The notes beneath the pieces are model-generated. The model ran no database searches and had not been told where the DNA came from. It saw only the letters and a list, made by a program, of their open reading frames with translations. The translations under genes and the position numbers were made by a program. This document shows positions 6,031 to 55,788 of a stretch of 64,000 nt of DNA, piece after piece. The stretch is from Psilocybe cubensis (lineage: Eukaryota). Location of the stretch: contig CM039006.1 of assembly GCA_017499595.2 (NCBI GenBank), positions 2,294,001 to 2,358,000 on the forward strand. Reading direction: 5' to 3'. Within the stretch, counting starts at the first letter, position 1, and every line of letters starts with the position of its first letter.

Positions 6031-6097
6031 CGCCTAAGGTGGAATTCTTCGGATTTTTCAAGACAGTGTCTCGCCCAGTGGGAATTACTCGCCACGG

Positions 6098-11940: not shown

Positions 11941-11950
11941 TGTGGGGGTG
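11941..11950 (+). promoter_or_regulatory. Polypurine-tract-like sequence before the 3' LTR
   Basis: TGTGGGGGTG directly abuts the 3' LTR. Confidence 0.6.
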
Positions 11951-12948: not shown

Positions 12949-12950
12949 TA

Positions 12951-14555: not shown

Positions 14556-14557
14556 TA

Positions 14558-31320: not shown

Positions 31321-31929
31321 CATCGACTCGCTTATCGTGTCGATAATCGCGCGATCAGGCGCGCGATCGGCGCGCGTTGAGCGACACGCCCGGCGATTTT
31401 ACGGCTGTATCGGCGTCTCGGTGATACGCGACGCGCCCTCACCAACGCTACATAGGCGCTTGTAAATTCAGCGACGAGAACTCACTCTCCAGTCGATAAC
31501 ACGGCATCGGCGACACATATTTACTCAGCGAGTAAAAAGGCATTTTTACTCAAATATATGTATTTCTGGTGCCCGGGTGTGTCCTACTACCATACATATA
31601 AATTCACAAAATTCTGCACATTCAAATCTACTTTTCTCCCTTCTTATTTCTAGACCTGTAGTCTGTATCTCACTGTAGTAGCATTGTATGTACTCACCTC
31701 AATGTATTGTATTCGTTTGACATCGTTTGCCATTGCCTTCTATAAAAATGATGTCTCTCAGAACAACTTTCTCGCAGTCTCTTATCACTAAATTACTCAC
31801 TCACCTACTCACTTCACTCGCCTCACTCGCTCACCCTCGCGCGCCTTACTCACTCATTCTCACTCGCTCACTCTCACTCACTCATCACCCTCGCTCAGCA
31901 CCTACTCCATCGACAACAACATCCGCATC

Positions 31930-33841: not shown

Positions 33842-34902
33842 CAGGAAGGCCTGTATGTACGTCAAGAAGTTGGCTTCAAGAGCTGGAAAGAGGGAAATGT
33901 GCGGTGAATTAGGGGAGGTATTCATTTAGATGATTGATATTTACCTGAGGCTAGTGCGCCAACGATCAAGAATGTATCCTCGAGGACTGTTGAGGTCTTG
34001 CCTGCGGATTGGATAAGTTGGATAATAAGGGTCATAATACGGTCAGCAAGGGCTCTCCATGGATTTGGTTCTGAAAAAAATGAATGGTCAATAAAAAGTG
34101 TAACAAAACATGACGGAAATGATGCCAGAAGCTACCTGGATGCTGAGAAGATGCTCCATTCTCTGAAGGATTGTAACGGCAGTGCTTTGAACAACGGTAA
34201 TAACATCAGGTGTGGCCTGAATGAGATTGGAGGTGATAGCCTCATAAGCAGCAGTAATGTAGTTTCATGCCAACTACAGTCAGCTATGATTTGACATTAG
34301 ATTACAATTTCATAGAAATGCAGAGATGGTCACAACCCAACCAACGCTTGTTCCACTTAAGGAGCCATCTTATCGTAATAGAGACTCATGAACCGCACAA
34401 GACATCCAAAGGCGCCAACCTGAACGGCGACCGTGGCGTTCAGAGTCGCCTCACATGTAGTTACGCTCGCCCTGGTGATTTATCAGGTTCTGTATGATCA
34501 CACAATGGAGTAAATCAAAGCTTACATCGCGGTCAAGGTTCTCGCGGACAAACTCGAGAAAGTTGTACGCGTGAATAGCTGCGAGCTGAACTTCCGGGAA
34601 AGGGTCCTCCTATCGCGTGCCGTGAATGACAGCGGTCAAGATCTCGTTCGATTTCAGGCTCAGGAGCTCCGGTTTCTATGCCGTCACCAAAAAATCATGC
34701 TGTACAAGATAGGAATAGTATTAAAACCAAAAACACAACTCCCAATCGCCTCACAGATAAATCCAATGGTCTGAAGAGTCGCGATTCTGAGGTTGGCGTT
34801 GGCTCGGGTATTGACGAAGCCGAGCAGGATCTCGATCAACTCAGGCCAGTGCCCCGCTCTGGATGTTCGACAGCAGCGATAGCTGAGACATCCTGGGCAG
34901 CT
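33842..34902 (-). pseudogene. KAP95: Captured importin-beta-1 (karyopherin beta) fragments, introns retained, internal deletions
   Basis: Spliced pieces WPELIEILLGFVN..NLRIATLQTIGFICEAI / KPELLSLKSNEILTAVIHG..VQLAAIHA..LEFVREN / GERNY..QVGAFGCLVRFMSLYYDKM / LTVVGMK..TAAYEAI..ILQRMEHLL / LADRIMTLIIQLIQSAGKTSTVLED..GALAS / ALEANF..YIQAFL match importin-beta HEAT repeats. Confidence 0.85.
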
Positions 34903-35209: not shown

Positions 35210-36458
35210 AGCATCAGCGACGCGAGATGATATATAATGCGGTCTTACTCACCTGTTCCCACCCAGAGGGCCCTGTCCGTTGGAATGGGGTCGTGGAGTT
35301 GAGTTGGAAGGCGCGCCAGTTATTCTGTAGGTGCGATGTGCCTAGTTGATTAGCATCGTGTAGTGCGCAGAGACAGGAATATCGGCGAATCTGCGAAACC
35401 AGGACGTACAGTAGCCATCTCTTCGGTCTTCGGTTGGCGTCCGTATGGTAGAGCACGTATAATGTCCTACTATACCTCTTGCGCGTCATTGTTCCGTCCT
35501 CATCTCATAGCAGAATAATTCCATTGTACACTAAGCTGATTCATGGACATGCATTGCTACATTACTCAATCTGAATGAGCTGCCTCAGCAGGTTCACCCC
35601 GCCGTACAGCCAGGAGGTGATGGGGACACAGGAAGAAGAAACCGTGAGAATCGGTCCAGCTCGCCAACATGTACCGCAGAAGTTTGATGCCGCTCATGCC
35701 GTCGCCAAATTGGTGATGCGCGTGATTGGTGGCACGGCATCAGCGGCATCAAACTTCTGTCCTGTATCATGGCGATTTTGTGACGGTGTGACGCCTTTCC
35801 ACCTCTCTCTCAACACTCACTCCTATGAAGCACGTCGTACGTAGAGATGGTTCGCATACGAGCTTACTGTAGTAGTAGCACTTTAGTGTAGACTCTAATA
35901 CCATAAACTTAGCTAGCTGCGTACTCTAGTAATACAATTTTAGTTCAAGTGACATAGACCCGGCTTGGAAGGGCAGAGGAAATAGTCGGGTGAGCAACAC
36001 AGAACGAGGAGGAACTACAATTCATTTGGATAGTGAATTACGCAGAAACATAGGTGCGAATAGTATTTGTATTTACTATCAGGCACAAAACACAAGCCAA
36101 AAACACATTCTACAGCACACCCGCCGCCTCTTCGCCTGCCAGACCCGTATTCGAGCGTCACAAACATAGGTGAGGAATCATCTTTGCTATCAGTGCAGGA
36201 AACATATTCTACAGCACATGTGCCGCCTCATTGCTTTACAGACCTCACTTATTCAACGACGCACCCACCTACATTCAAGAATTGAACGTTGAATGCTGCC
36301 ATAACTTTATGTTTTGTACGACGCTGCCTACTGTAAGCACCCGATCTGCGAGGTACCCTCTTTGCAGGTTGCCGTTTTAATTTGGATTTCACGATATCGG
36401 GACTTGTGTAGGATGTGCACATGGCTTCCGTCAACTCTCCTGCTAATGCAACTATATG
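35210..36458 (+). repeat. Non-coding repeat module, copy 1
   Basis: 35630-36458 is a close inverted copy of 53018-54550; 35250-35310 resembles 63468-63527. Confidence 0.85.
35677..35759. other. 83-bp hairpin (26-bp arms, 31-nt loop), copy 1
   Basis: cagaagtttgatgccgctcatgccgt ... acggcatcagcggcatcaaacttctg, one mismatch. Confidence 0.9.
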
Positions 36459-37599
36459 CAAGTCTATTCTCATCTGACACGAGTAACGTAAATATCTCAT
36501 TTACCCCCCCCCCCCCCCCCGTTGCTCTATTGAACCCCACAATTGGGATGACAGCCAGCGCTTTCACATGTTATTTACAACATCCTGATTTAATCAGGGG
36601 CTGCTAGAATTTTCGCTCATTCCGCACCTCGACTCGAGCCATATTTTTGAGAAGTAAGTTCAACCTTACACGCGTGTAGGCAACGCTCGTGTCCTTTCTG
36701 CCTCCGTACTAGTCTCTTGTTTGGTAAAGACCAATATGCTTTCTTACCACCTACATGAGATTATGAATCACCAGTTTCAGCAACGTTAAAAACAGTCGAG
36801 GTGTAATGAGAGCACCGCAAATAAGCTGCCTTATACTGAGAGCGAGCCTGCTGCGCCTTCTTTTCTGTGACCCGCTCGGCCCTGAAGACTCAATGGATGC
36901 ATATAGCACGGAAACCATATATCTGGAAAAGTAGAGACAATGCGGTGTCAGTAGGAATCGTTGGCGTAAAAATACCTGAGTAGAGCAACACGAAGGAGCC
37001 GGCATTTCAGCAAGCATAGGGTATGTCTAATTGCACAGTTAACAAACGTTTGACGGTTTTTATTCGCTAAAACTACATCTGCGCTAGATGATTGACCAGA
37101 TATATCTCCCCGGATCCGAATCTGTGTTGGCACACTGTTTTATTTTCCATTGCTCCTCTTGCGTGTTATCATTCTGTCCTCGTTTCATAGGGACTACATC
37201 TAGTATGTAGACTACATGTTCGACGCCGCTCATGCCGTCGCTTGATTGGTGATTGCGCCAGCATCACATGTCGCCCAATTATCTTATCTTATCGCTGTCA
37301 GAATAGACAAAACAGCAAGAGATCCCTTAAGACTGCCGGCGCAGCGCGATGGCAGGCGCAGAGCGAGACCTGTACTCGGATAATCCAAGGTGGCTTTACA
37401 ATACGGATTGGTTTAACGGGCAGCCTATGATCAGATCAGAGTGGTGAAAGTGTCAAAATGAGTGAAGGCGTTAACAGCCGTGATTCATACGAGTTCTGAG
37501 AACACACCCCCGAGATTGTGTGGTTCAGCAAAGAAACAAAAAGATGATTGAGATATCTGGATATGAAGAGCTGTTTGAATTGCACCAATGCTAACGGAA

Positions 37600-38660
37600 G
37601 GCCACAACATATGTGCTTGTGGGACTCGATGAGAGCCATGAGCAATTCACATAAGATAAACACAGTCCGGCTCGATATGGTGCAATCCAATTAAAACAGC
37701 ACCTGCAAAGGGGGTACCTCCTAGACAGAATGCTTATCGTAAGAAGCATCGCAGAAAAAAATATGGCAGCGTTCTGTGAGTGTGGCGTCGTTTATTAAGT
37801 GACGTCTGTCAGGCGACGAGGCGGCGCATATAGAATATGTTTTCCATACTAGTGATAGCAAGATGATTCTCACCTATGTTTCTGTGTAATTATGTGACCT
37901 CGAATGAAGGACTGGTGGGAGAAGAGGCGGCGCGTATGCTAGAACATGTTTTTGGTTTATCTTCTCTGTACTGATAGCAAAAGATGATTCTCACCTATGC
38001 TTTTGCATAATTCACCAGCACATGAATTGTCATGTTCACCGGTCTTTGAATTAAAGTTATTATGGTGTTAAAATCTACGTTAAAGTATCCCTACCGCTAA
38101 GCTAAATATTTGAATCGAATTTACATTCGACCCGCCGCATTGGAGAGTGGGGGTTGTCAGAGGAAGAAAGGCGTCACACCGTCACAAAATCGCCCTGATA
38201 CAGCACAGAAGTTCGATGCCGCTCAAGCCGTCGCAACATTGGTGATGTGCGTGATTGGTGGCACGGCATGAGCGGCATCGAACTTCTGCGGTACATGTTG
38301 GAGAGCTGGACATATTCCCACGGTTTTCCCTTCTTTCCTGCGCACCATCCTGGCCACGACGTTTGGCGGGGCTGGTGAACCTGAACCTGTCGAAGCAGCA
38401 CGTTGAGATTGAGTAGCGTAGCAATTTATGTACATGGACTAGCGTAGTGTGCAATGTATATAGTACTAGATCAGAGGAAATATTCTGCACGTCAGAGGCA
38501 TGGGGATCATATAGACTCTACCACCCGGTGCGATGTCTAGCGTACGCCCTGGTTTTGTAGGAGGTATGATGCTGCACATTTGGTCAGTTATCCACACAGA
38601 TCCACCTTTAGTGAACAGAACATCTCTTGGTTGGTGAGTCGCAACTCCAGTCTACCCTTC
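37600..38660 (-). repeat. Non-coding repeat module, diverged copy 2 (inverted relative to copy 1); hairpin at 38206-38288
   Basis: Matches 53040-54880 in direct orientation, e.g. aattaaaac.gc..cctgcaaag.gggtacctc, gatagcaaagatgattc.tcacctatgttt, aaaggcgtcacaccgtcacaaaatcgcc, gtcgcaactccagt.taccc. Confidence 0.8.
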
Positions 38661-39022
38661 AATAGCAAAGCACACTGACTGCTTGCGGACCGTCCCGACC
38701 GTCCCAAGGAAAATTACAGACTGCTTGCTGAGCGTCCCTGGAAAAACTACACTCACTTATTTCTTACCGAAGGTGCTCGTTGCACCGTCTGCTTCGTCTT
38801 GCTTCACTTAGGTATATTCGGTACACTCTACGTGCAATTTCTTACAACTATAAACTTAGATTGAGTGCGTCGCAGCAAAGGAGGCCACAGGGCAGCTCTT
38901 AGCACCCACAAGACAGCTCACCTCCTTCCTTATGTTTTTACTCCAAGGTAAGCGTTCATCTCATAGCCGTTTATTAGCTGAAATTTATCGTTTCCGTAAC
39001 AGTACTGCCTAATCCCTACTGT

Positions 39023-39941
39023 CTATTCTGCATCATTGACTCCTGCGATGTTGGCAAGGGCAGCTCGAACCCGAGCGCTTTCCCTCCTCCCCTCGACACG
39101 ACGATGTGCCTCCGCCCTATATTTCAGCTTCAACTTCAACACGCTATGAACTGGCCAACATTTATCGTAATCCCTGAGAACCGGCCAACGCCTAGTTGCC
39201 TACCACGTGTGTCAGCCTTGCTTTTGAGTAGTAAAACAAACTGGTAATTACCTCTTGACATATTGCTTCAATTTTTTCCTTTTTCTGAGATCTGTAGCTT
39301 TTACTCATATCCAGCGACCTCCTTGCTTCTCGGGTGATGTATCCCTACGGACAAAATCAAGGCATCAGTCAAGTATGGTGAGCCACTATTGATTTACATA
39401 CCACCATATCTCCTATATCTTCCTCAGACCAGTGGAAGTCGTCCCTCAGGACTGTCTGGATATTAAACCCACCACTTCCCCGACGGCCAGGTTCTCCCTT
39501 TGGCTTCTTATACATTTCGCCTCCTGGGACCGGCGAAGTCACGCGAGGATGAGAAGGCCCCGCCACTTGGAGGATCATAGCGGGATCAATGGGTTGCCCA
39601 GGATCGACCTGCACATGAGTTGCTGGTGTTGCAATTGAAGGCCCGATTGGAGGGACAGGTACGGTGTCCTGGCCTGAAGGTCCCTCTGCCTGTATGAGCT
39701 CTTCAGGCCCTGGAGCTGCGACGGATGATGGCTGTGGCGCGGCTCCACGCGGAATGGCGTGTCGCTGTAGCAGCTCTGGAGTCCATTGGATACGAGGGGT
39801 AATCTTAGGTAGAGGTTCTTGACTGGGTAAGAGGAATTCGATCCGGGGAGTGATGAGGGGGAGATGACGAATGTATTCGTGTGAAGGATGCGAGGATGAC
39901 ATGGTATATGTCGAGGAAAGATTGTGCGTTTTTCTTTTCAT
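39023..39941 (-). CDS. Three-exon hypothetical protein: Pro-rich N-terminus and KPKGEPGRRGSGGFN...W / YDKCWPV helical domain
   Basis: ORF 39369-39941 spliced to GYITREARRSLDMSKSYRSQKKEKIEAICQE and ATRRWPVLRDYDKCWPVHSVLKLKLKY...* via GT-AG introns with CTGA(C/T) branch sites. Confidence 0.7.
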
Positions 39942-40488
39942 TCACTATTTGTAGTTTCGTATTCGTCGCTCAATCATCCCCTTTGTTTATTCTATGTAAC
40001 GTCTCGCTCTTCCGCAGACACTCATCCTCAGTGTGCACGTCAAATCTCAGTGCACGTCAAATACGCACCAATTGTTTCGCAAAGTCGCTCTGCTAGTGTC
40101 AAAGATTGTTTGATCGATATCTTCTCACCGTAGGGGTAACCATTGATCGCTACCTATCATTCTTTCATCAATATCTATTTCAGGGAGGGCTCAAGAAAGC
40201 ATCATTTGTCTCTACAATGAGTGAAAACCCCAATGACAATATTATCAGACATTGAGCCTTAGTTATACTGAAAATGAGCCTTAGTTCCAATATGAATACG
40301 GTTTGGCGAAAACGTGACAAAAAGGCGACACGACTCAAAGGGAGATGTTATCTTTGACGAGTTATCTGTGACTCGTCAATGGCCAGTGCCAAGGGTGTCA
40401 CAATGACTTCCGGCGGCGCTGGCGGTAAAGTACTTAAAGAGCAGGAGTTATCACCAGTCGTAAACGATTCAAACCATCAGCACCCGCC

Positions 40489-42318
40489 ATGGCAAGTGTA
40501 AGCTTTGCATCCTGTAGTTGTCGCCCGCTGACATGTTCGATAGGAGAATTTCGCAATATTCAGAACATATAAGTTGCCATCCATTCTGCCTATCAACACT
40601 TTATTGTTCTCAGAGGACGCTAGACTCTTAATATCTGGCGGTGAGTCTTTTCCTATCGTCAGTGTTAGGTAATCTTTAATAAGAACAATATCATACTTAG
40701 GAGATGACGAGACGGTATATGTCTTGGACACAAAAACGGGGGAATGCATTCAAACTCTTGAGGATGACAACTGGGGACAAATCACCACAGTTGTCTGGGG
40801 ACAACAGGAGTTACCCAACAGAGAAAACGGCGTTGTGTTATGCATTGGCACGGGGAGAGGGTGTTTGGCGTTGGTTGCGCTAGACTATGATGCCACCAAA
40901 GTACTTCTCTTTCTCGTTTCAACTTCCTGTGTCCTTACATTCTGTATATCATTCCTTAGCCATTCCCAGTAGGCGCGAACACATCTCCTGTATTTGCGTT
41001 CAATGACTCTGTCGAGAAAATGGCTTTCGACAAGCTCAACAATCGATTAGCCGTCACAAGTCACTCCGGTGAGATCAAGGTTTTTGCAGTAAACAACAGT
41101 AAGTACTCTTGTCAATCGCCCTAGCACTCAAACCACACGAATATGGTACTCCTAGCTTCCTTGAGGTTATTGTGGGCCGATAATATTGGCAAAGTGATCA
41201 CCAGCGGCCTATTCTTTTTTGGGGGGTCGAATCAAAGCCTCTTGACCATCGGGTTGGAGACATCGGAAATGTGCGTTGATGTTTCTGTTTCCTTGCAATA
41301 TATTCACGAATTTCTACCACAGGAAGTGCCTCGATGCTTCAAAGAGAGGTCCGCCATTATGGACGAAACATTTGATTGGTGGGATGTACGTGCTACTTTA
41401 TGGAAACCCTCCATTATTTTGATAAATTTTTGAATATTTGACAGTGGAAGCGCGTCTCTGTCCAGCGATGAAACGTTGCTTCTTGTAGACAACCTTGCTA
41501 CCGGTAACTTCGACGTCTATCAGATCGCCGACAACTCCCCTCTTCGTTCCCTGCCAATAGGCTCGACCCGTCGATTTTCCAAGCAATGCGCCTTCTTTGA
41601 AGGTTCGAAAATAGCAGTTTGCGGCAGTGACACCAATAAAGTTTTCATTGTGGATGTCGCAAACAACTATGTTGTTCAGACACTGACAACATGTCGAGGT
41701 TCGACTTTTCGCTTACCTCCGCATTTCAGTTTATTAATTTGTGGACTTAGGTACTTACATGACACAAACGGTCTGTGTTACTCCATCGTCATCGCGCAAC
41801 GTCTTTGTCGCCGCCGCATGTCGTGGCTATGTATATATCTGGGAAAAATCAACTCCTCAAGTCCAGGTAAATGTTTGCGCAGATGACCCTCCCCCTTCGA
41901 GGTACCGTCGCGTTGGATCCGCTATTTTGCCTTACCTGGGATTTGCTGTCGCTGGTACTGTCGGCCATTGGTTACCACACGCCTGGAAGGTGAGCAGCTT
42001 ACAATCCTTTTGGCATTTGACAAACTAATGATATTCAAGTTGGGCCAAGACATAATCATGAAGACTGCTGATTATCTCATCCAGAATGGCGCAGATAGGA
42101 CGATGGAACTTCCAAGAGAAGCTGTTGACAAAATCTTCGAGATGGCGGCAGCGGCCTCGAGGGCTTTGGATATGTCGTCGGCACTGGTGTCGTCGAGGAC
42201 TCTCGACATGGCTGCTATTGCTACAACAACATACACGGCTGCTACTGCAACTGCTACGATGACATCCCCTTCTGCTACCTCTCTTTTTGACATGGCAGCA
42301 GCAGCGGCTGGCCATTAG
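40489..42318 (+). CDS. Multi-exon WD40-repeat protein with hydrophobic / Ala-Thr-rich C-terminus
   Basis: PINTLLFSEDARLLISG-GDDETVYVLDTKTGECIQTL, WGQITTVVW, VTSHSGEIKVF, LLVDNLATGNFDVY, AVCGSDTNKVFIVD, GYVYIWE; about 8 short introns. Confidence 0.8.
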
Positions 42319-42466
42319 AATCTGCATCTGCGTATCCTTCTAATTTGAAACGTGCCCTAGATTTCTTTTGTACATTTATGATATCGGATAATGACATTTT
42401 GCTGAGTAACCTGACTACATGCATCGAAGCTATGATCTACACAGTTTTCCATTATGTTCTCAGTGG

Positions 42467-45400
42467 TCAAAGAATTTGCCTATCTACAGGTCGGAGTCGG
42501 GATAAAGATACACATACAGCGACGTCTCTATCTTCCCATGGGATGATACATTTGGCAAAGTGTCCTTCTACAGCTGAAAAAGGAAGGACTTCGAGGATAT
42601 CTTGGACGTCGGTTCCCCATAGTTTGGCACGAAAATGAACCCACGGGATATAAGGATCGTATTTGACCCCCGCTTCTTGGTATCGATTAACCACAAACCA
42701 TATATCATCCCTAAGTACTTTTTTAGGAAACTTGAGGACATTCTTGATACGGTAGGGCACATTTGACGCATTGAGGACCCCGCTATTGCCTTCATGTACG
42801 TCCCAAGATGTATAAGATATCCGACCAACGCGATAACGGTTTGTATACATTGCCCGCGCGGGCACGGTTGTCACACCATACCGTAAAAATGCCCGAGTAA
42901 TGTCCATCTTTAACACCACCGCACGTCGATCATCGTATGGGATGGCTTCTTCTTGAAGATCTTCTTCGCTTTCCTCGTCGTCTGTCTCAGTGTCATCGTC
43001 AGCCTCAGCATTTGCGACATCGATTGTCTCTGCTTCTCCTGCGAGTATGTACCGTCCTTGGGGCATCACCAACTTGCGAAAGATCGGCCAACAGTCCCGA
43101 ATAGCTTGTGGACATCCTGGTCTTTGAAAAATTGCCATAAGTTTGGACCTTCTGTGCCAGGAAGTCGCAATTGTTTCCTCGTACTCGCCTACTATAGATC
43201 AGTAACCATGAAAGAGCAGGCAACAGGTAAAGCAAATTACCTTGCTTGTAATTTGTGGGAATTCTTTGCAGCATCCCAATCATACGTTCGAAGGGAAACG
43301 TCCACCAACCATGAACAGGCCCATATTCGATGATAAACTCCCTCATATGCATAGCCATATGATGATTAGGAACACACTGGTAGCTTGGAAACAGCCTTGA
43401 AAGCTCGGAACGGTATTGTACCATCAAATTCAGGTATTCATTGGCCATAGCTGGTGATGCGACCCGGGAAGTGATGACAGATATGGCCTCAAAAAGAAGC
43501 ATTGTGAGGCGCAAAAGTTCTCGACGTGTTTGGGCAGGTTTCGAATGGTCAATTCCCGACCATATTCGGATGAGGGTAACTGGGATGTAAAGTGCTGCCG
43601 CAATGCGCCATTGGTCTGATTTGAGTTTTCCACTCTTTGCGGACATCGACCAGGGTAACGACGAGACCCATGACGGTTTTACCATAGCTGCAATGTCTCG
43701 TCGGATGGATTTCATGTCTTCTGCTGTAAGTATCTTTCCCTGCTTGCCATCCACTTCTGAAGTAGCCTGGCTTGACTGTGACTGGCCGAAATTTTTAGTT
43801 GTTAGAAGAATTGAAAAATTTAACAACGTACGGATCTTTCTTTACGCTATTCACCGCGTATTAAACTATCAGATTGATGTTGAGGTAACGACGATGCAGA
43901 CGTACCCATTGAACAAGCATTTGGGCCAGATCTTCTTTCTTGACTCGCATCATACCATTTAACATGTCCCGGCCACGATTGGTGATGGTAGAGGGTATAC
44001 ACCCCAGATGTTTACCAACAAAAACAAGGGCTTCTGCTGCGGTCTTCTTTGCCAACTCGTTTGCTACGTCGGCATCTTCGATTGGAAGAGGCTCTGCCAA
44101 CCATTTTCTGATGATGCGTATTCCTTTTTGACCAGACTCTGAGGTTGGCAAAGGATTACTTTCATTGCCCTCAATGTTTTGTAATATAACGCTATCGCTC
44201 GATATAGGTGTTTGTTGTTTCTTCTTCTGCTTGGGTAAATCAGAACCGTCACCGAGAATGTGCTGAAAATGCTCTTTGATGAGTCCAAGAAAAAGGTTAT
44301 GCATCGGGTCTACAACAAGGCTCATGGTTGGCCGATAATAGGGCAATCGATGAAATTCTGACGTGCGCAATCCGGATTTGTCGAAAAGGCTTGCAGCGGC
44401 CTTTTCGGAGGGGGCTGCCTGGTATTTCCAGGCACCATCTCGACATTCGTCATCGGTGCGCCATGTCCATTTTTCATAATCGAAGTTGTTGAATGTATGC
44501 ACAGTTTTACTACACCAGCACATCGAACAGAAATATTCCTGATTGTATGAAGAAAATCCACCAGCCTTCCGTGCTGCAGGAAGATTGGCGATGATTGCAA
44601 GAAGAGCACAAAGAATAATGCGCCCCATAGCGTAAAGAGCGGTGCGCGTAAAAAAAACACCCACCCAAAACAGCAGGAAAGTGTCAACAATAGGGCGGAA
44701 GTATGGGTTTGCTGCTTCTAGACTGGGTTCATTGGGACCCGGAATAATACCCGCGAGAAAGATGTTTTCAGGTTTATATCGAGTAGTTATGGGAAGGTTG
44801 AGGCATGTTAATGCGATAACTCCAATTGAAATCTTCTTTCCAGCCGTAAGATTACGCAAAGGATTAAAGAAATCAAAGCCGAGTGAAAATAGATAACGTC
44901 CAGTAGTTTCATTTCCGGATACACCGAAAAATTTCTTATCGCATCCCTTGAAGTTACGGATGCTGGAAGACTGAAAAATATCGTCCATGCGCCCATTTTC
45001 TTGAACAGGTTCGAACGTTTTCTTCCAAGCACCGTCCATTGCTTCCTCGTATCCTCGATGCGATAACATGTCACCAAGCCAGTCCTGGAAATCGAATGAT
45101 AGGAAGGGTTTGATGGGTACATTAATGGTCTTATTGCTGTATCTCTTTGGCCGGACAAGAAGTTCCCCACAACGATTACCGAACTTCCGGGCATTGCATC
45201 GTTCGCGATAGGTAGAAATATCGTCCTCTAGGGTTGGCTTGTAGATTTCATTGCACTTTGGACAAGCGGCATACACGATGAACTTCGAATCAATGTCAAA
45301 ACGCTTGATTGCCGCTCGAACGTCTAGAGGAAACGAACGAAGAACTTGCTCGAGCCAACGAGGAAGGATTTTGTCGACAAAGATAGCCTCTCCCGTTCTT

Positions 45401-46300
45401 TGAGCGATATATTCGCACATGGAAAAGACAAAATAGCATCCACGTCGAGGAAACCTCAATATAGCGTAGCAAGAAACAACCATAAGGTTGATCATCTGCA
45501 TCGCGTCAATTATCCATGGGGGTAGCCAAGGCATACTGTATGCATAGGGAAGGAAGGGAAGGAAGTGGTGCCCTAGGGTCGATAGTTGATAAATAGTTCA
45601 TCGAATACAAAGTGAAAAATAAACATGCTCGCTCACTTGAATCGTATAAATTAGGTACGCTATCCTGAATAGAAACTCGCTGGCGAGATCTCTTCGTTTG
45701 CCTCTCCTTCCATGTTGCCTCTACACGGTCTACATCTTCATTAAGTCGCTCGATATTTTGGTGTGCATCATGTCGCAAAGATTTGATCGAGGCTTCCTTG
45801 CGCAAAGGACCGGATTTCGTAAAGTCTAAATCTCTCGATGCGTTGGAATTAAGAGCTCGTACTTCATGGCAAAGTTGAATTGCCTTATCAATTTCCCCAT
45901 TGCTGAAATATTTCTCTCCTGACAGGTCAATGGTGTTGATTTGTTGGGCACGAAGTCTGGTATTGTCTAGAATATCTGCAATCAGAGCCACGATTTTTTT
46001 CTTCTGTTCGTGCTTGTACTGCACTTCCTTTTCCTTGATCGTCTCGGTGTCCGGGTCCTGAACAGATAAAAGTTGCATTGCTTTCTCCAAGGTGGTTTCG
46101 ACCTTCTCCATGGCCCTTTGCTGCTCAAGGATCGCCCGTGATTCAAGATTCCTCTTCATCTGACCCACGCTTTCCTCGTGTTGGTGCTTTTTATATGTAG
46201 ATGGCGACAATTGAACACCTGGCTGTCCTGTGACAGGATCGCGTTTCGCGCCGCACCCATGCACAGTGCACAGGCAAAACTTGGCTTTCCAAACCGGCAT
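42467..46300 (-). CDS. CACTA/En-Spm (TnpD / Transposase_21-like) transposase, multi-exon; the second catalytic Asp appears as Asn
   Basis: CLCTVHGC N-terminal exon; CPKC..C..C; LGFDFFNP, CLNLP...ENIFLAGIIPGPNEP, ANLPAARK..GF..FCSMC, VDPMHNLFLG, KLKSDQWR, PNHHMAMH..YGPVHGWWTFPFERMIG. Confidence 0.9.
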
Positions 46301-46831
46301 AGGTCTGTCGAATCAACCAGAATATCGATATCGATGTGGTAACGGTTAAGCAATGATAAGAGAAATTTTACCACATGAGAAATTATTATGCGATCACGCA
46401 GCTGCAGCTGCAGCGGAGGCAATGACCCGGAGGAACTCGATAAGGTGATGTCGCCGAAACGCCGAGGCATAACAAAGGGACTGAGCGATGAAAGACTAGC
46501 GTTTTCTTTTAAAGCGCTTGTTCAGGAACTTTCTTCATTACCCTCACCTTCCAAACACCCAGCACAACTGAGTCTAGTCGTCCAACTAAACTATGTCTCA
46601 ACCTTCCAGGAGTCGTAGTAACAGCAAATCATCTGTAACAGGGGCTACCCCAATATATACCGCGATGCTTTCCCGCGAACACTATATAAAGGCTGTTAGC
46701 GCGAGATCAAGAAAGAACGCAGGGGTAAGTTGTCTAAGGATTGATTGAGGCGCATTTTTCAATGATACATTACCTTCTGTAAGAAGTCTGCTTCGAGGCA
46801 ACGCCGGTCTCCTGAAGCAGGGGACGCTAGC

Positions 46832-48152
46832 ATGGTGGCAGGGCCATCGAGATTCCAGGAAGTTGATGATGACGACATGGACCAATCCTTTGAATCCAAT
46901 TCAACTGCGTTAGTCACCAACACCTTGACGTCCAACAAAACCCAGGCTGCGGTGCGCTTGAGTATAATGATTTATGTATTTCAATCTGACAGTACATACT
47001 TTCACCAGGGGAGTATTCAAAGGGCCTACACGGCCCCAATGGTCTCGTCCTTTGCCAAGAACCGTGAGGTTTCCACCGAAGGTCCATCGACAGAGATTGC
47101 GAATGTGTCGGTGGATGCTGGGAGAGACAATCTTATGACCAGACGTCCTCCTATACAGGTGGCCAACGTGAATGCTATATTAGCCATACTCCCAGGCCGG
47201 AATGAATTGTTTCCCGCCGTTCAACATAACCGATCTATTGCCAATGGATCGTATGCAGCATCCACCAATGTCCAGAATGATCGAGGCATAACCAATCAAC
47301 AAAGCGGAGTGGATGCTGGGATAGACCAAGTGATCATTAGTCAAGTACGCCACGATCATACGCCGTCGACTTTAGCACTAATCAACTACTTTCGATGAAC
47401 AGGATGAATATGACAGGCTGAAGTCCACTTCAAATGCTGCAAGGTTGAGAAGTGATGATATAATAGCGACCGTAAGAATAATGAAATGATTCATAAGGCA
47501 GCGACTTACATCTGCATCCATTTTCCAGGTTAGAGAAGTTCAAGCCGACAGGGAGCGCATTGCCGCCCTTGAGCGAGGTCTAACCGAGCAGGGAGAGACG
47601 TTTAAATGGGTTAGTTTGGTTTCTTCCCTCACATAACCTTATGACGTTTATCCGAGACCGTCACACTTTTTAAACAATTATATTATAGGAAATTGACAAA
47701 GCGAGCAAGATGTATACTGAGCTCTTGAAGGAGAAGGTGGCCCAGGAAAACCTGTACCTTGAAACGAAGAGGGTAAATTTACAATATGACCGATATCGAT
47801 AATGTTAATGACAAATTTAAATAGGAAAATGACAGGTTGAAGGAGCTGGAAGAGACAGTACTTGGATTCGCAAAATGCACAATTTGCTATGAATTTATGG
47901 AGCAAATTTGCGTGTAAGCCTTTTCGAGAACTGTGTTTACAGATCAAAGTGACCTCAGAACATTATCACAGCTTTGCTTGTGGTCATGTTTGCTGCAACG
48001 ATTGCAGGACAAAGCTTGAGTTATTTGACACACTGAGGTGCTGCTTTGTATGCCGCACATTTGTTCCAGATGAACAACCCCTCTCGCGTTACCATCCCCT
48101 CAGCCAGATTCTGTCCAATGTAAAGGATAAGGCTAATGCAGAGGGTGTTTAG
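46832..48152 (+). CDS. Multi-exon protein with coiled coil and C-terminal C3HC4 RING finger
   Basis: Spliced KCTICYEFMEQIC-V-FACGHVCCNDCR...RCCFVCR gives the full C-C-C-H-C-C-C-C pattern. Confidence 0.75.
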
Positions 48153-48296
48153 AGTAATCCTACTCCCTCTGCACGCTGCAGCTTCTGTTCGAGGTGATCA
48201 TATAAGTATATAGCAAATGAAGAATGTCATGTTTCATACCAGAATTTATATTATCTTCACAAGACGAGGTGATGGTAGAGAAATACCAAAAACAGG

Positions 48297-51200
48297 TCAC
48301 AGTATCTTTTTCTTGTACTGGTCTTTTAACTGAGTCATAACATTGGAGTTGAGGTCTCTGTCTTTCTTGGACTCGGGAACTGAACACAGGAAATCCGTGC
48401 TGAGTATAAATCGCTCGCCAGTTAAAACGTCTACACGATCTTTAGATCGGGTGACTACAGCGACCAAGACAGTTGGATTATCCGAGGTGCCTTCATGATG
48501 AATGCGACGAACGAATTTCCCGCAATGTTCCCCCTTGATAACCACTAGAGGCCCATTGTCATGTATTCGATTTGCATACTTCGGAGTGACCCAAGCGGGG
48601 TCCACCATAGTCCATGAACTGTACTTTTTGCACCTGAGTACGAGGTTGTTTGCATCCCAAACCGTTGAGGCGACTAATGTTTTATTGCTGAACTGTCCGC
48701 CGTTGACTACCACATTCAGGCTGATGTCCACCAGTTTGGGGTTTAAGAGAACATGTTCGCACACAGAAGAGGAAGTCGTATGACAGTTTGTTTCAGATGA
48801 GGAGGAAACAGATGTAGAGACGTCTGATAACGCAAGACTTGTTGGCGAATGAGCAGTTGGGTCAGGTGTCCTTGAGGAGGGGTCCCAAGCTGGAGTGATA
48901 GATTGCGGTGTACCGATGGGTGTCCTTGAGGAAGGATCCCAGGCTGGAGTTGCAGTGGGTTCTGAGTACATCGGTGTGCCGCTCACTGACGCAATCGTTT
49001 GCGGTACGCCAGGGAGAACGCGGACGTGCTTCATGGAAGACTTAGGTATAGGACGGAAAAATTTTGGCCCAGGATCAAGGAAAAGAACGAGCTCATTGAA
49101 CGTCCTTGCGTACAAGTTAGACAGAGGGTACATGCAATGACAACACACTTACGAAAGTTCGACGACATCGTCATAGTCCACAACGATTGTTTGGAACGGT
49201 GCAAAGGGATTAAAACGGGTGAGTTGAATAACGAGCTGCAGTCCGGCGTTGTCTGTATGATGAAGGACGTCTTTGATTTGTCCAGTCTCACCCTTGCGTG
49301 GGTGAAGATGCTTCTGTATAATGACCTCTAAACCAGTCCATGGGTGTCTTAAAAACTTGGTGTGGACTGGGTCTGACTCCGACAATAATGTCACATCGAC
49401 AAGAGGTAGGGGCTCAGTAAATGAAGTGTCCAAGAGATTGACGTGTACCGCAAAATGCTGTTGAAAGGTATAGCCACGTTAAGAGAAAAACCGGTGAATA
49501 TGTCAAGCTGCAAATTTACTCACTTCCACAATCTCAACCTTGTTATCATCTCCTACCCCAGAATTAAACTGGTTAGATGCTGCTGTTGTACTGACCACAG
49601 CGCCCTGGTTGTACGACTCCTGAGCTGCTGTTGGTTTTCCTACTCCTGTGACACACGAACTCCCTCCCGGCATCGACATTTCTTCTTCATCTGACGTTGC
49701 TGCTGATTCATCCAAAGTTAGAGCGATATCCGAATGCACCATTATACCCCCTGGCATCATTTGCGCTTCTACCGCCGTCCCCAGATCTGTCTCCGCCGAA
49801 CCTTTTCTCAGATCATCGTTCCCTGTCGGCACGGGATATTGTTCTTTTCCGTTGGTGGGCGTCGAAGATGTTTCAGCATTTGTTTCCACAATGGAAATGC
49901 GACCATGCACCGAACTTTTCGTTATTAGTGCATGGTCTCCATGGATTCCAACGACCCAACCTCTGTGATCGAAATAGGGGCCGCTCACAACTCGAACGAA
50001 TTGCCCGATTTTTGGTGACTTGAGAATGTCTAGCCATGTTCCCCTAACACTGTAGCGGATTTCACGTTCACCTTCGATTGTTGATTGTTCTGCTTCAACG
50101 TCGTATGTGTCCAGCTTTTTCAGCACTGCAGGTTCCCACTTTGCAGACCGATTCGCAACGTCGGGTGTACGAAAAAGAACCTCCTCTTCCAGTCCTAAGC
50201 ACCATTCCCGAGGACGTGGCATACGCGCTCGCATTATGTCGGGATGATTGGTGCTCCTAAACATGGAGAAGTGGGAATACGGAATATCCATGACGGAATT
50301 TGCGATGGAGGTATAGTCGAAATCCTTTTCCAACAGTCCATGGTCAAACTTGAGAAGTCCAAGCGTGTATGATCCATCCGCATTGCGAATAATGGGAGTA
50401 GAAATGAGTTTGCGGGCTTCTTCAGGGTCGAAAAGTTTTGCTGGGGGTACTAGTACCGATGACTTTCTCTTTTGTGACTTTGCAGATTGCGAATTTAGCC
50501 GAGGAATGAGAAGAACCTGAGCGCCCCAGGAAAAAGTCGCTGAAATCAGTCCAACGTCTCCTTTGTATATGCCTTTCTTAACCAAAACCCAGGTCCCAAC
50601 CTCAAAATCCTTCTTGACATCCCTCATCGTAAGAAGTTCGTGCTGATGGTTCCGATCCACTATTTCGCGCTTGACTCCAAGGTGGTTACGAAGAATTCCG
50701 GGCGTGGACAAGAGCAGATTCACGAGGGCTGGATCCATGATACCTTCAACGTAGATACTTCCGCGTATAGAGCCGCGAGTAAATGCGGAACGAATATGGT
50801 GGATCTCCCTTGCGGTCTGGAGAAGGGATAGGACAGCTGCATCCTCAGAGCCGATCTGCAAAAGTTGATAGAAAAATAATCAAGGGATAGGTATTCAGAC
50901 TTACCCGACATCCAACCCTCCAGAGAGGATAGTCATTCTCAAGCGGAAGACGCGCAATCTTCTCCTGGAGCATGGTTATCCTATCTTCCTCCTCCAAACG
51001 TATAACCGGACGTGGTTGACGAGGGCCCTTTGCTTGAGCCTCCAGGCGAGCCAGTAGTTGGTTAAATGAATCCTCCTCGCTGTCATCTTCTGGCCTATGG
51101 AACGCCATAGAGCCTATGTGATCTTCCCCGTCCACTTCCGCTCCGTCGTTAATGAAGGCATCTGTAAAGACAGTCAAATCAAGTCTATCGCAACATTCTG

Positions 51201-51383
51201 GACAGCTCGCCTTCAAGGTCCCGTTCTGCAGACGTAAGCTGCTCATCGTCAGAAAGCTCTCCATCATCAGCTACCTGTGCCTCCGTGTCCAGAAATTGGC
51301 GGACGTTCCTCATAACCTAGGGAGAAAAAATCATGAGTATCAAGATGCTTTGAACAGAAATCAAGCAAGCCTACCCGCTTCAT
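48297..51383 (-). CDS. SPT5: Spt5-like transcription elongation factor paralogue (acidic N-terminus, NGN, several KOW, TPAW CTR repeats)
   Basis: FLDTEAQV..FIND; PLWRVGCR-IGSE..SAFTRGSIRGSIYVEG; VGTWVLVKKGIYKGDVGLI..LIPRL..PPAKLFDP; IGQFVRVVSGPY; WTGLEVII..RKGETGQIKDV; TPAWDPSSRTP x2; LVVIKGEHCGK. A paralogue, not necessarily the host orthologue. Confidence 0.85.
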
Positions 51384-52639
51384 CCTTTGGACTGTGTCGT
51401 TCGATGGAAATGAACAAATTTAATTAGATGATCAGTTACCACTCTGACTTAGGAATCGGAATCTATATGACGTTGGTGTGCTCAGTAAGTTTTTTTCATC
51501 TTCATTACGATGGTGATCTCATTTTCATTTTCCAACTATCCAAATCTATCACTGAACTACGTGTAATAGTACATATTCTCGTTCCGGTTCAACGCCAATG
51601 CAGAATCCGTGGCGTATCTTACCTGGAATGACAGCCCCTGAGCAACGAGGAGACAAAACGGTATGGTGGAGAGAAGAAGAAAAAGAGCGTGGGAATGGGT
51701 GGGGGGCTGTAGAAATGGCGCAGAAGTTCGATGCCGCAAATGCCGAAACATATCACGTGTTAATGTTCCTCGGGCATCCCGGGTGTGGATGAGGGTTCAA
51801 AACATTGAGAGCTGAGCGTCGTGCTGAAACTTATCAATGCGGAAGCGCTCATGTGAACACTTAAGCTCGTATCCTGTTAAAAATGCATGGTGAAACCTAT
51901 TGTAGGGAACCTAGATGATGGAGCGACACGAAGTAGTCGGCTCGTCCTGAATGAAAAATTCATAGAAAATGGACATAATAAATTATTGACATGACCGTTG
52001 AGACAACTCTTCCAGAATAAAATTTAGGGGCAGAACCAAGGGGCACACCGTTAGTTCCATCAAAAACCAAGGCACAAGTTATGTATGGCGTACCCAGGTC
52101 TATGCTACCGCGAAACTAAGTATTTCGTTGCTTGCATATTCAAAAGTACGTACTACAGTTTACAAACAGTGGGAAATCAGCTACTCTACAAGAGTCTCAG
52201 GTGTTTGTATTTCCGAAGGAAAATAAGCACATTCAAATAATCTTGTAGTGAGCGGCGACCTTAGCATTTTGTGAGCCCAATAATTCGAGTATCAACGGTA
52301 GATATATTTGCGTGGAAAACGGTAAAAACAGACGAGGCCGTACTTCCAAGGACCCGCAGAAATAAGTTAAGGAGAACATCCTGGTTCATTGATCCAATCA
52401 TGTAGATAGGGTCACCATGACACTGTAATAGAAGAAGCGCGGTTGTAAAAATACAGGGCCAAGTCCTCAATAACGAATATGTGAAACATACAAATTAGGC
52501 ACCTTGTCGTCGAAGTCGACAGATTTGCGGGCCACGTTGCGGTGTCTACCACAACCTTTGCGATAATAAACATGGATAAGCTCGTACAGTTAGTGAGCAA
52601 TGCAGAGCGGTGATGAAGCTCTACACATAATATGTCACT

Positions 52640-52970
52640 GAACATCTCGTGTTCGTGAGAGTAAATTCGGCTTACAGTACGTGTAAAACAATACCTCACG
52701 GCGATTCGAGTTCGAGGGTGAAGTGGGCGCTGGGCAATGGCCGTGTTAGATTGTTGAACGAGATTTTAAACCACCCACTGGCAGGACAAAATGGGGTTGG
52801 AAAGTCACCGAAGATTATTATATCAAGTAGAGCTTGGGTTAATAAATTTAGTATATCAATTGCAGATATTGATGAAGCGACATACTTCATAGATTGAAGA
52901 GAATTATTAGACGGGAACATCTCGCGTGTTCGAGAGAGTAAATTTGGCTTACAGTACGTGTAAAACAATT
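52640..52970 (+). repeat. ~55-bp direct repeat pair
   Basis: gaacatctcg..tgttcg.gagagtaaatt.ggcttacagtacgtgtaaaacaat at ~52640 and ~52915. Confidence 0.8.
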
Positions 52971-53017
52971 GAGACTGGTGCCGCTCGAATACCTGATAGA
53001 AAAAAGACGGAGCCAAT

Positions 53018-55788
53018 CTATAGTTGCATAAGCAGGAGACTCGACGGGAGCCATGTGCAAATCCTGTATATTCCAAGTCCCGATATCGTGAAATCCAAAT
53101 TAAAACGGCAACCTGCAAAGAGGGTACCTCGCAGACCGGGTGCTTACAGTAGGCAGCGTCGTACAAAACATAAAGTTATGGCAGCATTCAACGTTCAATT
53201 CTTGAATGTAGGTGGGTGCGTCGTTGAATAAGTGAGGTCTGTAAAGCAATGAGGCGGCACATGTGCTGTAGAATATGTTTCCTGCACTGATAGCAAAGAT
53301 GATTCCTCACCTATGTTTGTGACGCTCGAATACGGGTCTGGCAGGCGAAGAGGCGGCGGGTGTGCTGTAGAAGGTGTTCTTGGCTTGTGTTTCCTGCCTG
53401 ATAGTAATAAAATACGATTCGCACCTATGTTTCTGCGTAATTCACTATCCAAATGAATTGTAGTTCCTCCTCGTTCTGTGTCGCTCACCCGACTATTTCC
53501 TCTGCCCTTCCAAGCCGGGTCTATGTCACTTGAACTAAACGTTCAATTCTTGAATGTAGGTGGGTGCGTCGTTGAATAAGTGAGGTCTGTAAAGCAATGA
53601 AGCGGCACATGTGCTGTAGAATATGTTTCCTGCACTGATAGCAAAGATGATTCCTCACCTATGTTTGTGACGCTCGAATACGGGTCTGGCAGGCGAAGAG
53701 GCGGCGGGTGTGCTGTAGAAGGTGTTCTTGGCTTGTGTTTCCTGCCTGATAGTAAATAAAAATACGATTCGCACCTATGTTTCTGCGTAATTCACTATCT
53801 AAATGAATTGTAGTTCCTCCTCGTTCTGTGTTGCTCACCCGACTATTTCCTCTGCCCTTCCAAGCCGGGTCTATGTCACTTGAACTAAACGTTCAATTCT
53901 TGAATGTAGGTGGGTGCGTCGTTGAATAAGTGAGGTCTGTAAAGCAATGAAGCGGCACATGTGCTGTAGAATATGTTTCCTGCACTGATAGCAAAGATGA
54001 TTCCTCACCTATGTTTGTGACGCTCGAATACGGGTCTGGCAGGCGAAGAGGCGGCGGGTGTGCTGTAGAAGGTGTTCTTGGCTTGTGTTTCCTGCCTGAT
54101 AGTAAATAAAAATACGATTCGCACCTATGTTTCTGCGTAATTCACTATCTAAATGAATTGTAGTTCCTCCTCGTTCTGTGTCGCTCACCCGACTATTTCC
54201 TCTGCCCTTCCAAGCCGGGTCTATGTCACTTGAACTAAAATTGTATTACTAGAGTACGCAGCTAGCTAAGTTTATGGTATTAGAGTCTACACTAAAGTGC
54301 TACTACTACAGTAAGCTCGTATGCGAACCATCTCTACGTACGACGTGCTTCATAGGAGTGAGTGTTGAGAGAGAGGTGGAAAGGCGTCACACCGTCACAA
54401 AATCGCCATGATACAGGACAGAAGTTTGATGCCGCTGATGCCGTGCCACCAATCACGCGCATCACCAATTTGGCGACGGCATGAGCGGCATCAAACTTCT
54501 GCGGTACTTGTTGGCGTGCTGGCCATATTCTCACGCTTTCTTCTTCTTCTGTTCCAACCATGCTCATCTAGCGGGTGAAGTAGCACATATAGACCGAGTA
54601 GCGCTGCTATCCATGTAGGCAGTCTAGCGTAGTGTACCATGTAAATAATACAAATACTACTACAGGGAGCGAAATGGGGACCGAATGATATTGTGCGTGA
54701 GGTGTAATCGAAGTGCCAACACAGATGTTAAGCACGTATGAGATCTCTACGCTCGCCGTAAGTAACACAATTTTCTGCACAGTGTTGTATATTGGGTCAG
54801 TCATTCAGCGCAGATACAGGTCAGCGAACAAGACATCGCAAAAGTTTCGAAGCATGTCTGGTAAGTCGCAACTCCAGTGTACCCGCCGTTTGCTAACCAT
54901 GCGATTAGACGCACACGATTCTCACTCAAGTCGTTCGTTTCACCATTTCCTTCCTCTTGTTCTACACAGGTATGTTTCGTTCTGTCTACCTAATTTTCTG
55001 TAGTAACTTACATAGTATAGCCCATCTCCTATCCCGAACACCAACGATCCGCACTATGCGCTATTAAGCAAACAAGATCCCGGACTTGTCATCGTTCGGA
55101 TACCGGTGTTCCTTCCAACTCAACTCCACAACCCCTTTTGCACGGATAGGGCCCTCTGGATGGGAATAGGTTATCAGAATTGCATTGCATGATGTGTAGA
55201 GCGCGTATACGCAGACGTATGACTGGGTAAGTCTGTTTACGTCGCATGTCCCATGGCATTCGCTGATATACCTGACAGACCCTGATTCCCATATCCTCCA
55301 TGCACATTGCGCAGGTGGATGACATTCGCATCCTTCTCTCTGTGCAGAACGAGCATCGCTGAGAGTGCACGATAAAATACCAATCAAGTAAGTAGCAGGT
55401 TCACTTACCTTGACGCTTCCACTGATTTGCCACATCCAAACTTTGGCTAGCAAGTCGTCGAACCTGGATGGCCAGCGAGGGGTCCATCGTCGCCCGACAC
55501 GAACGCATGTACTTCAGTCGTGGAGACGTGTAGGCTCGAGCGGGAAACTGGGGCAACATTAATGTACGTGGCTGAACGAAGACGGCTGCGCACAGTACTC
55601 ACTCCTCACACAGAGTTGCAACGCCCGTCCTTTGCTGTGTCCTCTCCATTCCATCGGTTGCATCAACGTTTTAGGGCAAACCATGACATATACAGAAGGT
55701 CATCATTTCGCGAGAGTACGTTTTTCGTCTTCTGTCTCTCTTTCTTAAGCACCAGGTTTTGATCTACAACTTCTCCTTAGCACGCTAT
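53018..55788 (-). repeat. Non-coding repeat module, copy 3 (longest); hairpin at 54419-54501
   Basis: Left part is inverted against copy 1; right part (54636-55788) is inverted against 62848-64000. Confidence 0.9.
53191..54238. repeat. Tandem triplication of a ~350-bp unit
   Basis: Units start acgttcaattcttgaatgtagg at 53191, 53539 and 53889 and are nearly identical; a single inverted unit sits at ~35940-36290. Confidence 0.95.

Follow-up and report, generated by a model that had tools for sequence, protein, structure and literature searches.

Does a hairpin that occurs in flip and flop forms within one stretch of fungal DNA mark a programmed switch or a replication intermediate, or is the flip a mutational by-product? 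The question is raised by three copies of an 83-bp hairpin in a 64,000-nt stretch of Psilocybe cubensis DNA (the window). The original prediction gave them 26-nt arms and a 31-nt loop, and the sequence agrees in all three places. Hairpin A is located at 35677-35759 (arms 35677-35702 and 35734-35759, loop 35703-35733), with an O-type flank on its left and an I-type flank on its right. Hairpin B is located at 38206-38288 (arms 38206-38231 and 38263-38288, loop 38232-38262) and has the I-type flank on the left and the O-type flank on the right. Hairpin C (54419-54501) is a whole inverted copy of A. None of the three is assigned to a strand.

Each arm of 26 nt is built from a tandem pair of CGGCATSAR motifs with ACTTCTG after them. 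When the window was searched with a degenerate 25-nt arm pattern, 8 sites emerged, six of which are the arms of A, B and C without mismatches; the remaining two (37214-37238 and 51722-51746) show 3 mismatches apiece, and no site is expected by chance (100 shuffles). Likewise, a 24-nt loop pattern has three sites in the window (plus strand at 35709 and 38238, minus strand at 54446) where none is expected. Folded as single-stranded DNA the hairpins reach -38 (A), -36.2 (B) and -38 kcal/mol (C), corresponding to z values of -7.5, -6.5 and -7.5, and 0 of 200 shuffles fold that well. The arm-gap-arm pattern gave 0 matches in prokaryote genome contigs. An 89-aa ORF spanning hairpin A was compared with a set of 5.8 billion proteins, which returned one candidate with common words and none scoring.

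The loops of B and C were predicted to be opposite despite flanks of the same sense, which is what we find: the flanks are direct repeats (38107-38238 vs 54320-54451, 75%; 38263-38351 vs 54476-54564, 81%), whereas the 83-nt cores are 92% complementary. The B loop matches the C loop at 10/31 positions in the same sense and at 28/31 when C is reverse complemented. The loop itself is not palindromic (8/31). The inversion is limited to the spacer between the inverted arms, with arms 24/26 identical on each side and collinear flanks. Compared with A and C it is the B loop that is flipped relative to its flanks, and on the plus strand it is a direct repeat of the A loop.

For the copy set as a whole the flip/flop claim holds for B against C but not for A against C, which are related by a whole-segment inverted duplication with no flip. 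From about 35670 inward and across the hairpin A and C show no difference, with a 31/31 match of the C loop to the reverse complement of the A loop, and the I-type flank beside the hairpin is identical at 200/200 nt. Identity of the O-type flank declines outward (18/20, 16/20, 14/20, 11/20), so that the near-identity tract stops at the O-side base of the hairpin. A and C are a young pair with the same loop orientation relative to the flanks. The window contains only two independent lineages (A=C, and B), flip and flop being represented once each. Hence one inversion event suffices. Most likely the flip is one old inversion between inverted arms, separating paralogs with ~72% identical flanks, and not an active flip-flop switch; its direction and age are not set by two lineages.

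The arms co-vary as described before, with TTTG/CAAA in A and C vs TTCG/CGAA in B. The accompanying caveat that CpG decay on both arms could mimic this is weakened, as a mirrored change is hard to get by CpG decay alone (chance about 0.02, or 0.024, in a simple, post hoc simulation for a single pair of sites). One mismatch remains unrepaired in each stem, and its position differs between the two lineages.

Two partial copies, announced at ~37218 and ~51721, are both present. The latter, D (51663-51746, plus strand), consists of an O-type flank and a single arm (51721-51746) and is a candidate plain end of a transposase-bearing unit. D is homologous to the other copies as far as the arm/loop boundary and no further. 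Local alignment of the sequence downstream of the D arm with each of three targets gives a score of 9, the shuffle mean being 9.3, which rules out D as a degenerate full hairpin with a B-like loop downstream. The other, E (about 37213-37263, plus strand), is degenerate; it retains one arm and the first half of the loop, breaks off in mid-loop and has unrecognisable flanks. Neither D nor E folds into a hairpin (z = +0.8 and -1.4, respectively), and for E the folding also rejects a hairpin with symmetric arm deletions. Breakpoints besides the flip also fall on the hairpin, namely the end of the A/C tract, the end of D and the end of E.

The flanks form two modules. Homologues of the O-type module of A (35251-35676, minus strand) lie at 38289 to about 39050 beside B and at 54502 to about 55250 beside C. 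The I-type module of A (35760-36456, plus strand) has its counterparts at 37623-38205 beside B (about 70%) and at 53019-54418 beside C (minus strand, 96-99%), the latter being lengthened by a 350-bp tandem repeat (53190-54239, 3.0 copies, 99% matches). All three copies show the order O, loop, I, and homology extends over at least 330-750 nt on the O side and about 600-700 nt on the I side. O and I both start with the same 26 nt plus a common TGGCGA but are unrelated beyond the arms (score 10 vs a shuffle mean of 10.5), which places the hairpin on a module boundary. The same score rules out O and I as the two sides of one ancient long palindrome. At the far edge of the I module (36456 in A, 53019 in C) lies a tip-like ...CTGCT(A/T)ATG; past it A and C have a further 8 nt in common, where B fails to align.

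The region is a fungal (Agaricales-like) transposon cluster. The window contains a single Plavaka/tnp2 (Transposase_21) transposase gene, located between B and D at 43461-46282 on the minus strand. Its ORF matches Transposase_21 with E = 2e-8 (Pfam). A search at E <= 0.001 yields 269 relatives; where named, they come from Candolleomyces and Gymnopilus, and PF18759, which we take to be the 'Plavaka transposase' family, is present in many of the 269. In a tblastn search with seven relatives, 7/7 fell on this single locus. Among 67 ORFs between 31 and 64 kb the Plavaka/tnp2 DDE transposase was the sole enzyme domain recognised by Pfam, and no nickase, resolvase or serine/tyrosine invertase was found.

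A candidate autonomous Plavaka-type unit of 13.5 kb (38263-51746, no strand assigned) is delimited by the right arm of B and the arm of D. Its two ends have the arm and about 60-90 nt of inverted similarity in common. The inverted repeat between the O flanks of B and D scores 20 vs a shuffle mean of 10.3, a value reached in 1 of 300 shuffles. An arm with O-type flank forms both ends of this candidate transposase-bearing unit, element boundaries being judged from the copies in this window alone. At D the border of homology is the arm/loop boundary; at A, B and C homology continues past the loop and into the I module. Target-site duplications of 2-3 bp were not found at 38263-51746, at 35734-38231 or at the other candidate tips tried, the nucleotides adjoining the putative tips being complementary (CGG...CCG) and not direct repeats. 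Shifting the tip by one base yields a 2-bp 'CG', but CG is part of every arm and hence uninformative.

PlavakaB termini are described as 5'-CATCA..TGATG-3' with target-site duplications of 2-3 bp for Plavaka, and among the 14 PlavakaB consensus starts listed 13 begin with CATCA, five with CATCAGC and one with CATCAGCGG (PMC12730594). In the window CATCAGCGG is read towards the loop, at a distance of 4 nt, in the arms on the I side of A and C. These arms alone carry the exact published motif, a 7-mer match that could be chance. A second CATCA or CATCG is present in every full arm. The O-side arms read CATGAGCGG, the commonest arm variant, the I-side arm of B reads CTTGAGCGG and D reads CATTTGCGG. 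All three loops and E contain the loop motif GATTGGTG, which has 7 sites in the window vs 2.3 expected. Neither it nor the arm motif is a dispersed subterminal repeat: outside the hairpins and E there are 3 further loop-motif sites and 0 arm-motif sites.

We consider the hairpin to be a recombination-prone palindrome of Plavaka-type (CACTA/EnSpm-superfamily) end-repeats and the flip to be a mutational by-product, with no programmed switch or replication intermediate involved. We assign this reading a probability of roughly 0.6. The palindrome would consist of two inverted terminal-repeat copies parted by the 31-nt spacer. By analogy with the terminal and subterminal repeats of CACTA elements, what keeps the arms and the adjoining 20-40 nt on both sides is probably their role as binding sequence of transposition proteins. 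With a second inverted arm 31 nt past the element tip, the site could fold back during replication or repair. A polymerase switch between the arms, or a crossover, would then invert the spacer and overwrite one arm with the sequence of the other. Both forms could have arisen from a single such event, in either the B or the A/C lineage, and the same process may have matched the TTCG-to-TTTG change in both A/C arms. Template switching between the arms of an inverted repeat is described to homogenise the arms and invert the spacer (PMC8604942, PMC8794818), and palindrome-associated loop inversions are reported as recurrent within plant species (PMC2903610). Of the causes that the original prediction listed for the flip, recombination or copying between inverted arms is retained as the simplest origin, whereas hairpin resolution found no support in our tests.

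The core is strongly conserved. Between A and B 133/143 positions of the core including the loop are identical (93%) vs 308/567 (54%) in the far flanks (Fisher p = 3e-20), and the loop alone reaches 28/31 (p = 5e-5), equalling the arms. A functional cis-site had been proposed; the hairpin is indeed a conserved, non-random module, but the tests favour neither hairpin resolution nor a site-specific invertase nor a known RNA family. That the arms are the transposon's own end-repeat, a point absent from the original prediction, explains much of the arm conservation. The conservation of the loop counts against our preferred reading, as neither a mere spacer nor flanking DNA accounts for it.

The hairpin could instead be a junction of two elements, which we regard as possible if rather unlikely. 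O and I would then be the ends of the 13.5-kb unit and of a 2.5-kb non-autonomous element with long TIRs (35734-38231), facing each other over 31-39 bp of non-element DNA. The apparent flip would be a 39-bp direct repeat on the plus strand beside the 2.5-kb element, resulting from an unusual duplication or an att-like integration. This fits the loops of A and B, which have the same orientation on the plus strand on either side of 35760-38205, as well as the lack of relation between O and I beyond their common start of 26 nt and TGGCGA. Moreover D is an O end without loop or I module, and the tips face the loop as abutting ends should. However, the order O, loop, I recurs in all three copies, for which three copies of one end region are simpler than three juxtapositions, and the loop is conserved like a functional part. 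No integrase was found among the 67 ORFs at 31-64 kb (Pfam), and Plavaka duplications measure 2-3 bp, not 39 bp (PMC12730594).

A programmed or enzyme-driven flip-flop, in which the isomers are made repeatedly by hairpin resolution or by a transposase that cuts both tips and reinserts the fragment between them in inverse orientation, appears very unlikely. Inverted arms, an asymmetric loop that is conserved in either orientation and the presence of both orientations would suit it. Hairpin chemistry is used by Transib/RAG-type relatives. Plavaka is placed within the CACTA-Mirage-Chapaev-Transib group (PMC12730594). Against this stands a single flip between two old paralogs, the young pair A/C having the same orientation relative to the flanks. 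The hairpins are internal to the contig, and domains of Rep/nickase, telomere resolvase or serine/tyrosine invertase were not found in the 67 ORFs. The lineage-specific position of the arm mismatch furthermore implies that the arms are not constantly regenerated from one strand.

We likewise give very little credence to a pair of reversed tips, where the Plavaka transposase, being related to the Transib/RAG enzymes that form hairpins, would cut both tips and rejoin the 31-39 bp fragment either way, like V(D)J hybrid or inversional joints. If true, flip and flop would be transposase footprints at abutted ends and the conserved loop part of a synaptic site.

It is extremely unlikely that the hairpin acts as structured RNA, either as a transcribed Dicer substrate giving small RNAs against the transposon or as a terminator closing the transposase unit at its downstream end. 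Its stability (z = -6.5 to -7.5), the pairing-preserving double change at one pair of sites and the location of B downstream of the minus-strand genes of the 13.5-kb unit agree with such a role, but a perfect DNA palindrome folds alike on both strands, which makes folding silent on transcription. In addition each stem keeps its mismatch, D is left unexplained and no match over 31-64 kb, scanned at a permissive E-value, reached the Rfam gathering score, the best overlap being mir-3118 on B (25.8 bits vs a threshold of 89, E = 0.54). A promoter or regulatory palindrome has a similarly minimal chance: two CCAAT boxes (ATTGG on the opposite strand) are present in the loop, and CCAAT-binding factors could act on them either way round, in line with the orientation-blind conservation and with the presence of GATTGGTG in each loop and in E, but of the 7 motif sites 3 are situated outside the hairpins and E.

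Mushroom-forming fungi are rich in Plavaka elements, the ends of which have only lately been defined. A palindrome that is conserved, combines two inverted tip repeats and lies on a module boundary could help to define the cis-requirements of Plavaka. On our preferred reading as a recombination-prone end-repeat palindrome, it would in addition provide a clear case, in nuclear DNA, of a palindrome carried by a transposon as a local hotspot of inversion, gene conversion and truncation. A lesson for annotation is that a set of repeat copies may show both flip and flop without a switch being at work, as a single arm-mediated inversion and two lineages suffice.

In comparison to known systems, the locus resembles the hairpins of parvovirus ITRs and poxvirus telomeres in being a palindrome whose asymmetric centre occurs in two reverse-complementary orientations. 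Those hairpins are the physical ends of linear replicons, and replication gives both forms equally. The present hairpins, in contrast, lie within a chromosome-like contig and have homologous sequence to their left and right. Each lineage shows a single form, and Pfam recognised no initiator nickase or resolvase among the 67 ORFs (31-64 kb). It differs from switches of the Hin/Gin, Fim and FLP type in that no serine or tyrosine recombinase domain was found in the same ORFs. Foldback-type elements and Ac/Ds reversed-ends (alternative) transposition offer further parallels. With the former the locus shares long inverted arms with tandem subrepeats (35522-36456 vs 37623-38456; 350-bp repeats), although the foldback look may represent two element copies head to head. 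With the latter it shares transposon ends facing each other amid many inverted duplications, whereas a rearrangement product of reversed-ends transposition is not demonstrated here.

The ends of CACTA/En-Spm elements carry repeated motifs, also inverted, that are described as cis-determinants bound by element proteins (PMC2613891). The present locus has in common with these elements and with fungal Plavaka a tnp2-type transposase nearby and repeated end motifs. Its arm motifs are similar to the CATCA..TGATG tips of PlavakaB (PMC12730594), the exact published motif being limited to the I-side arms of A and C. The locus departs from Plavaka in that no 2-3 bp target-site duplication was found and a distance of 4 nt separates the tip-like motif from the loop, which it faces; the word 'hairpin' occurs 0 times in the available text of PMC12730594. 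Spacer inversion by template switching, including the plastid hairpin inversions, shares with this locus short inverted arms, a spacer reverse-complemented between homologs, matched arm changes and possible recurrence (PMC8604942, PMC8794818, PMC2903610). Those cases concern orthologs, whereas here paralogous copies of one genome are compared, the arms are long (26 nt) and represent a transposon end-repeat, and the spacer is conserved.

Three hairpins are present in the window as first described: A (35677-35759), B (38206-38288) and C (54419-54501), all with 26-nt arms and a 31-nt loop. Each arm consists of two tandem CGGCATSAR motifs followed by ACTTCTG. Scanning the window with a degenerate arm pattern returned the six arms of A, B and C and, beyond these, just two diverged arms, each standing alone, at 37214 and 51722; no match is expected by chance (none in 100 shuffles). 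The loop pattern hits three sites in the window, on the plus strand at A and B and on the minus strand at C. As single-stranded DNA the three hairpins fold at -36 to -38 kcal/mol (z = -6.5 to -7.5), a stability reached by 0/200 shuffles.

Each hairpin keeps apart two unrelated flank modules, termed O and I. O is homologous in A, B, C and in D (51663-51746), which consists of an O flank with a single arm and whose homology ends at the arm/loop boundary. I is homologous in A, B and C and is extended by a 350-bp tandem repeat in C. Beyond the arms O and I have nothing in common (alignment score 10 vs a shuffle mean of 10.5).

The original prediction held that the loop is inverted relative to its flanks, and for B and C this is borne out. 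Their flanks are collinear with 75-81% identity, while the 83-nt cores are 92% complementary. The loops are identical at 28/31 positions in opposite sense vs 10/31 in the same sense, and the loop is self-complementary at 8/31 positions only. Hence the flip is real and limited to the spacer.

A and C do not represent flip and flop; instead, C reproduces A in inverted orientation. Their near-identity begins abruptly at 35670 / 54508, 7 nt outside the hairpin base. From ~35670 inward they are identical over the entire hairpin and the first 200 nt past it, and on the O side identity drops immediately (18/20, 16/20, 14/20, 11/20). The near-identical stretch runs to the outer limit of the I module (36456 / 53019). 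It resembles a tract of gene conversion or duplication that the palindrome delimits on one side. B, with flanks ~72% identical to those of A, is an old paralog. With C as an inverted copy of A and B as an old paralog, the window contains two lineages, one per loop orientation, and a single event suffices for both orientations found here.

For the comparison of A and B, the core comprised both arms, the loop (read in its flipped sense) and the adjoining flank, 20 nt on the O side and 40 nt on the I side. Identity amounts to 133/143 in the core vs 308/567 in the far flanks (p = 3e-20), and the loop alone is identical at 28/31 positions (p = 5e-5). The module, loop included, is thus constrained or slow-changing. 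It tolerates either loop orientation. The terminal and subterminal repeats of CACTA elements are described as the cis-determinants to which element proteins bind (PMC2613891); repeats bound in this way would account for the conservation of arms and near flanks.

The window's one Plavaka/tnp2 transposase gene (43461-46282, minus strand) has 269 relatives, which, where named, belong to Candolleomyces and Gymnopilus. It is bracketed by the right arm of B and the arm of D. The flanks of these two arms are inverted repeats (score 20 vs a shuffle mean of 10.3, with 1/300 shuffles as high). Both observations argue for the arm being an end-repeat of a candidate 13.5-kb Plavaka-type unit (38263-51746). 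This unit also contains a divergent Spt5-like gene (48297-51267, minus strand) encoding KOW domains and CTD-like repeats. Its product resembles solved Spt5 structures only remotely (best E = 1e-10) and shares 35-44% identity with proteins from Flammula, Psilocybe and Pholiota. The gene looks like a member of a paralog family and may be transposon cargo.

Since the entire ~1.5-kb block recurs, we favour a layout in which O, hairpin and I would together form an end region that belongs to one element family and occurs here in three copies. Alternatively, the block is possibly the junction of two different elements lying tip to tip; A's and B's loops would then be direct repeats around a 2.5-kb non-autonomous element. 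PlavakaB termini are given as 5'-CATCA..TGATG-3' with TSDs of 2-3 bp (PMC12730594), and among 14 PlavakaB consensus starts from its supplement 13 start with CATCA, five with CATCAGC and one with CATCAGCGG. A and C carry the latter in their I-side arms, at a distance of 4 nt from the loop and directed away from it. The remaining arms carry CATGAGCGG, CTTGAGCGG or CATTTGCGG instead, and no TSD was found at any candidate element in the window; variant motifs and absent TSDs count against a simple reading of the arms as PlavakaB termini.

A ATCAAACA/TGTTTGAT motif is densely clustered in both orientations at 30930-31330, which holds 12/27 of the window's ATCAAAC sites. Within it, an 81-nt palindrome (31017-31097) contains GGCATCAAAC, a 10-mer common to the hairpin arms. 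The cluster may represent subterminal repeats from the end of a related element, perhaps from the opposite end of the unit terminating at hairpin A.

The surrounding DNA looks like that of an Agaricales-type fungus. Importin-beta-like gene fragments (TPR_IMB1 matches; 33922-34264, probably on to ~35100, minus strand) represent either a broken gene or a fragment captured among transposons, and are adjoined by GC-rich low-complexity sequence at 32-34 kb. A copia-type LTR retrotransposon at 5777-12192 (242-bp LTRs, 98% identical) has ORFs with integrase, then RVT_2 domains, its reading frame being in several pieces. A 1.6-kb Tc1/mariner-type element bearing terminal inverted repeats of ~213 bp occurs twice, at 12936-14557 and 23929-25550 (98% between copies), and its second copy retains the HTH_Tnp_Tc3_2 and DDE_3 domains. 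Duplication (84-92% identity) is also seen for AT-rich segments at 21.1-23.5 kb and 28.0-30.3 kb. A 1153-nt inverted repeat (54636-55788 and 62848-64000, 99.9-100% identity) reaches past the window end and reflects either an inverted duplication of very recent origin or an effect of the assembly. By extrapolation, a mirror copy of hairpin C would lie just past position 64000. The two arms of the 1153-nt repeat enclose 7 kb encoding coiled-coil ORFs that contain tandem repeats (58.5-60.6 kb).

The hairpin had been interpreted as a functional cis-site for recombination, resolution or structured RNA. The conserved module and the signatures of arm recombination described below support this in part. 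However, Pfam scans of 67 ORFs (31-64 kb) gave no nickase, resolvase or invertase domain, Rfam gave no family at its threshold, and A, B and C are all internal to the contig, none terminal. The single assembly available gives one loop orientation for each locus. Neither a pattern scan of prokaryotic genomes nor an ORF-based protein search revealed further hairpin copies.

According to published work (PMC8604942, PMC8794818), template switching between inverted-repeat arms inverts the spacer and also homogenises the arms. Both signatures are seen here, namely an exact spacer inversion and a TTCG-to-TTTG change that A and C each carry in matched form on their two arms. CpG decay alone produced such a matched change in ~2% of trials of a simple, post hoc simulation of one pair of sites. 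Three more breakpoints fall on the hairpin: the A/C tract end at the O-side base, D at the arm/loop boundary and, in mid-loop, the fragment E (~37213-37263; one arm and half a loop). Taken together, spacer inversion, matched arms and extra breakpoints point to a recombination-prone palindrome assembled from transposon-end repeats. The finding is chiefly of value for what it may tell about Plavaka ends. In plants, palindrome-linked loop inversions are described as recurring even inside one species (PMC2903610). The event reported here, in which the spacer between inverted repeats was inverted within a palindrome of transposon ends, adds a new example to a kind already known.
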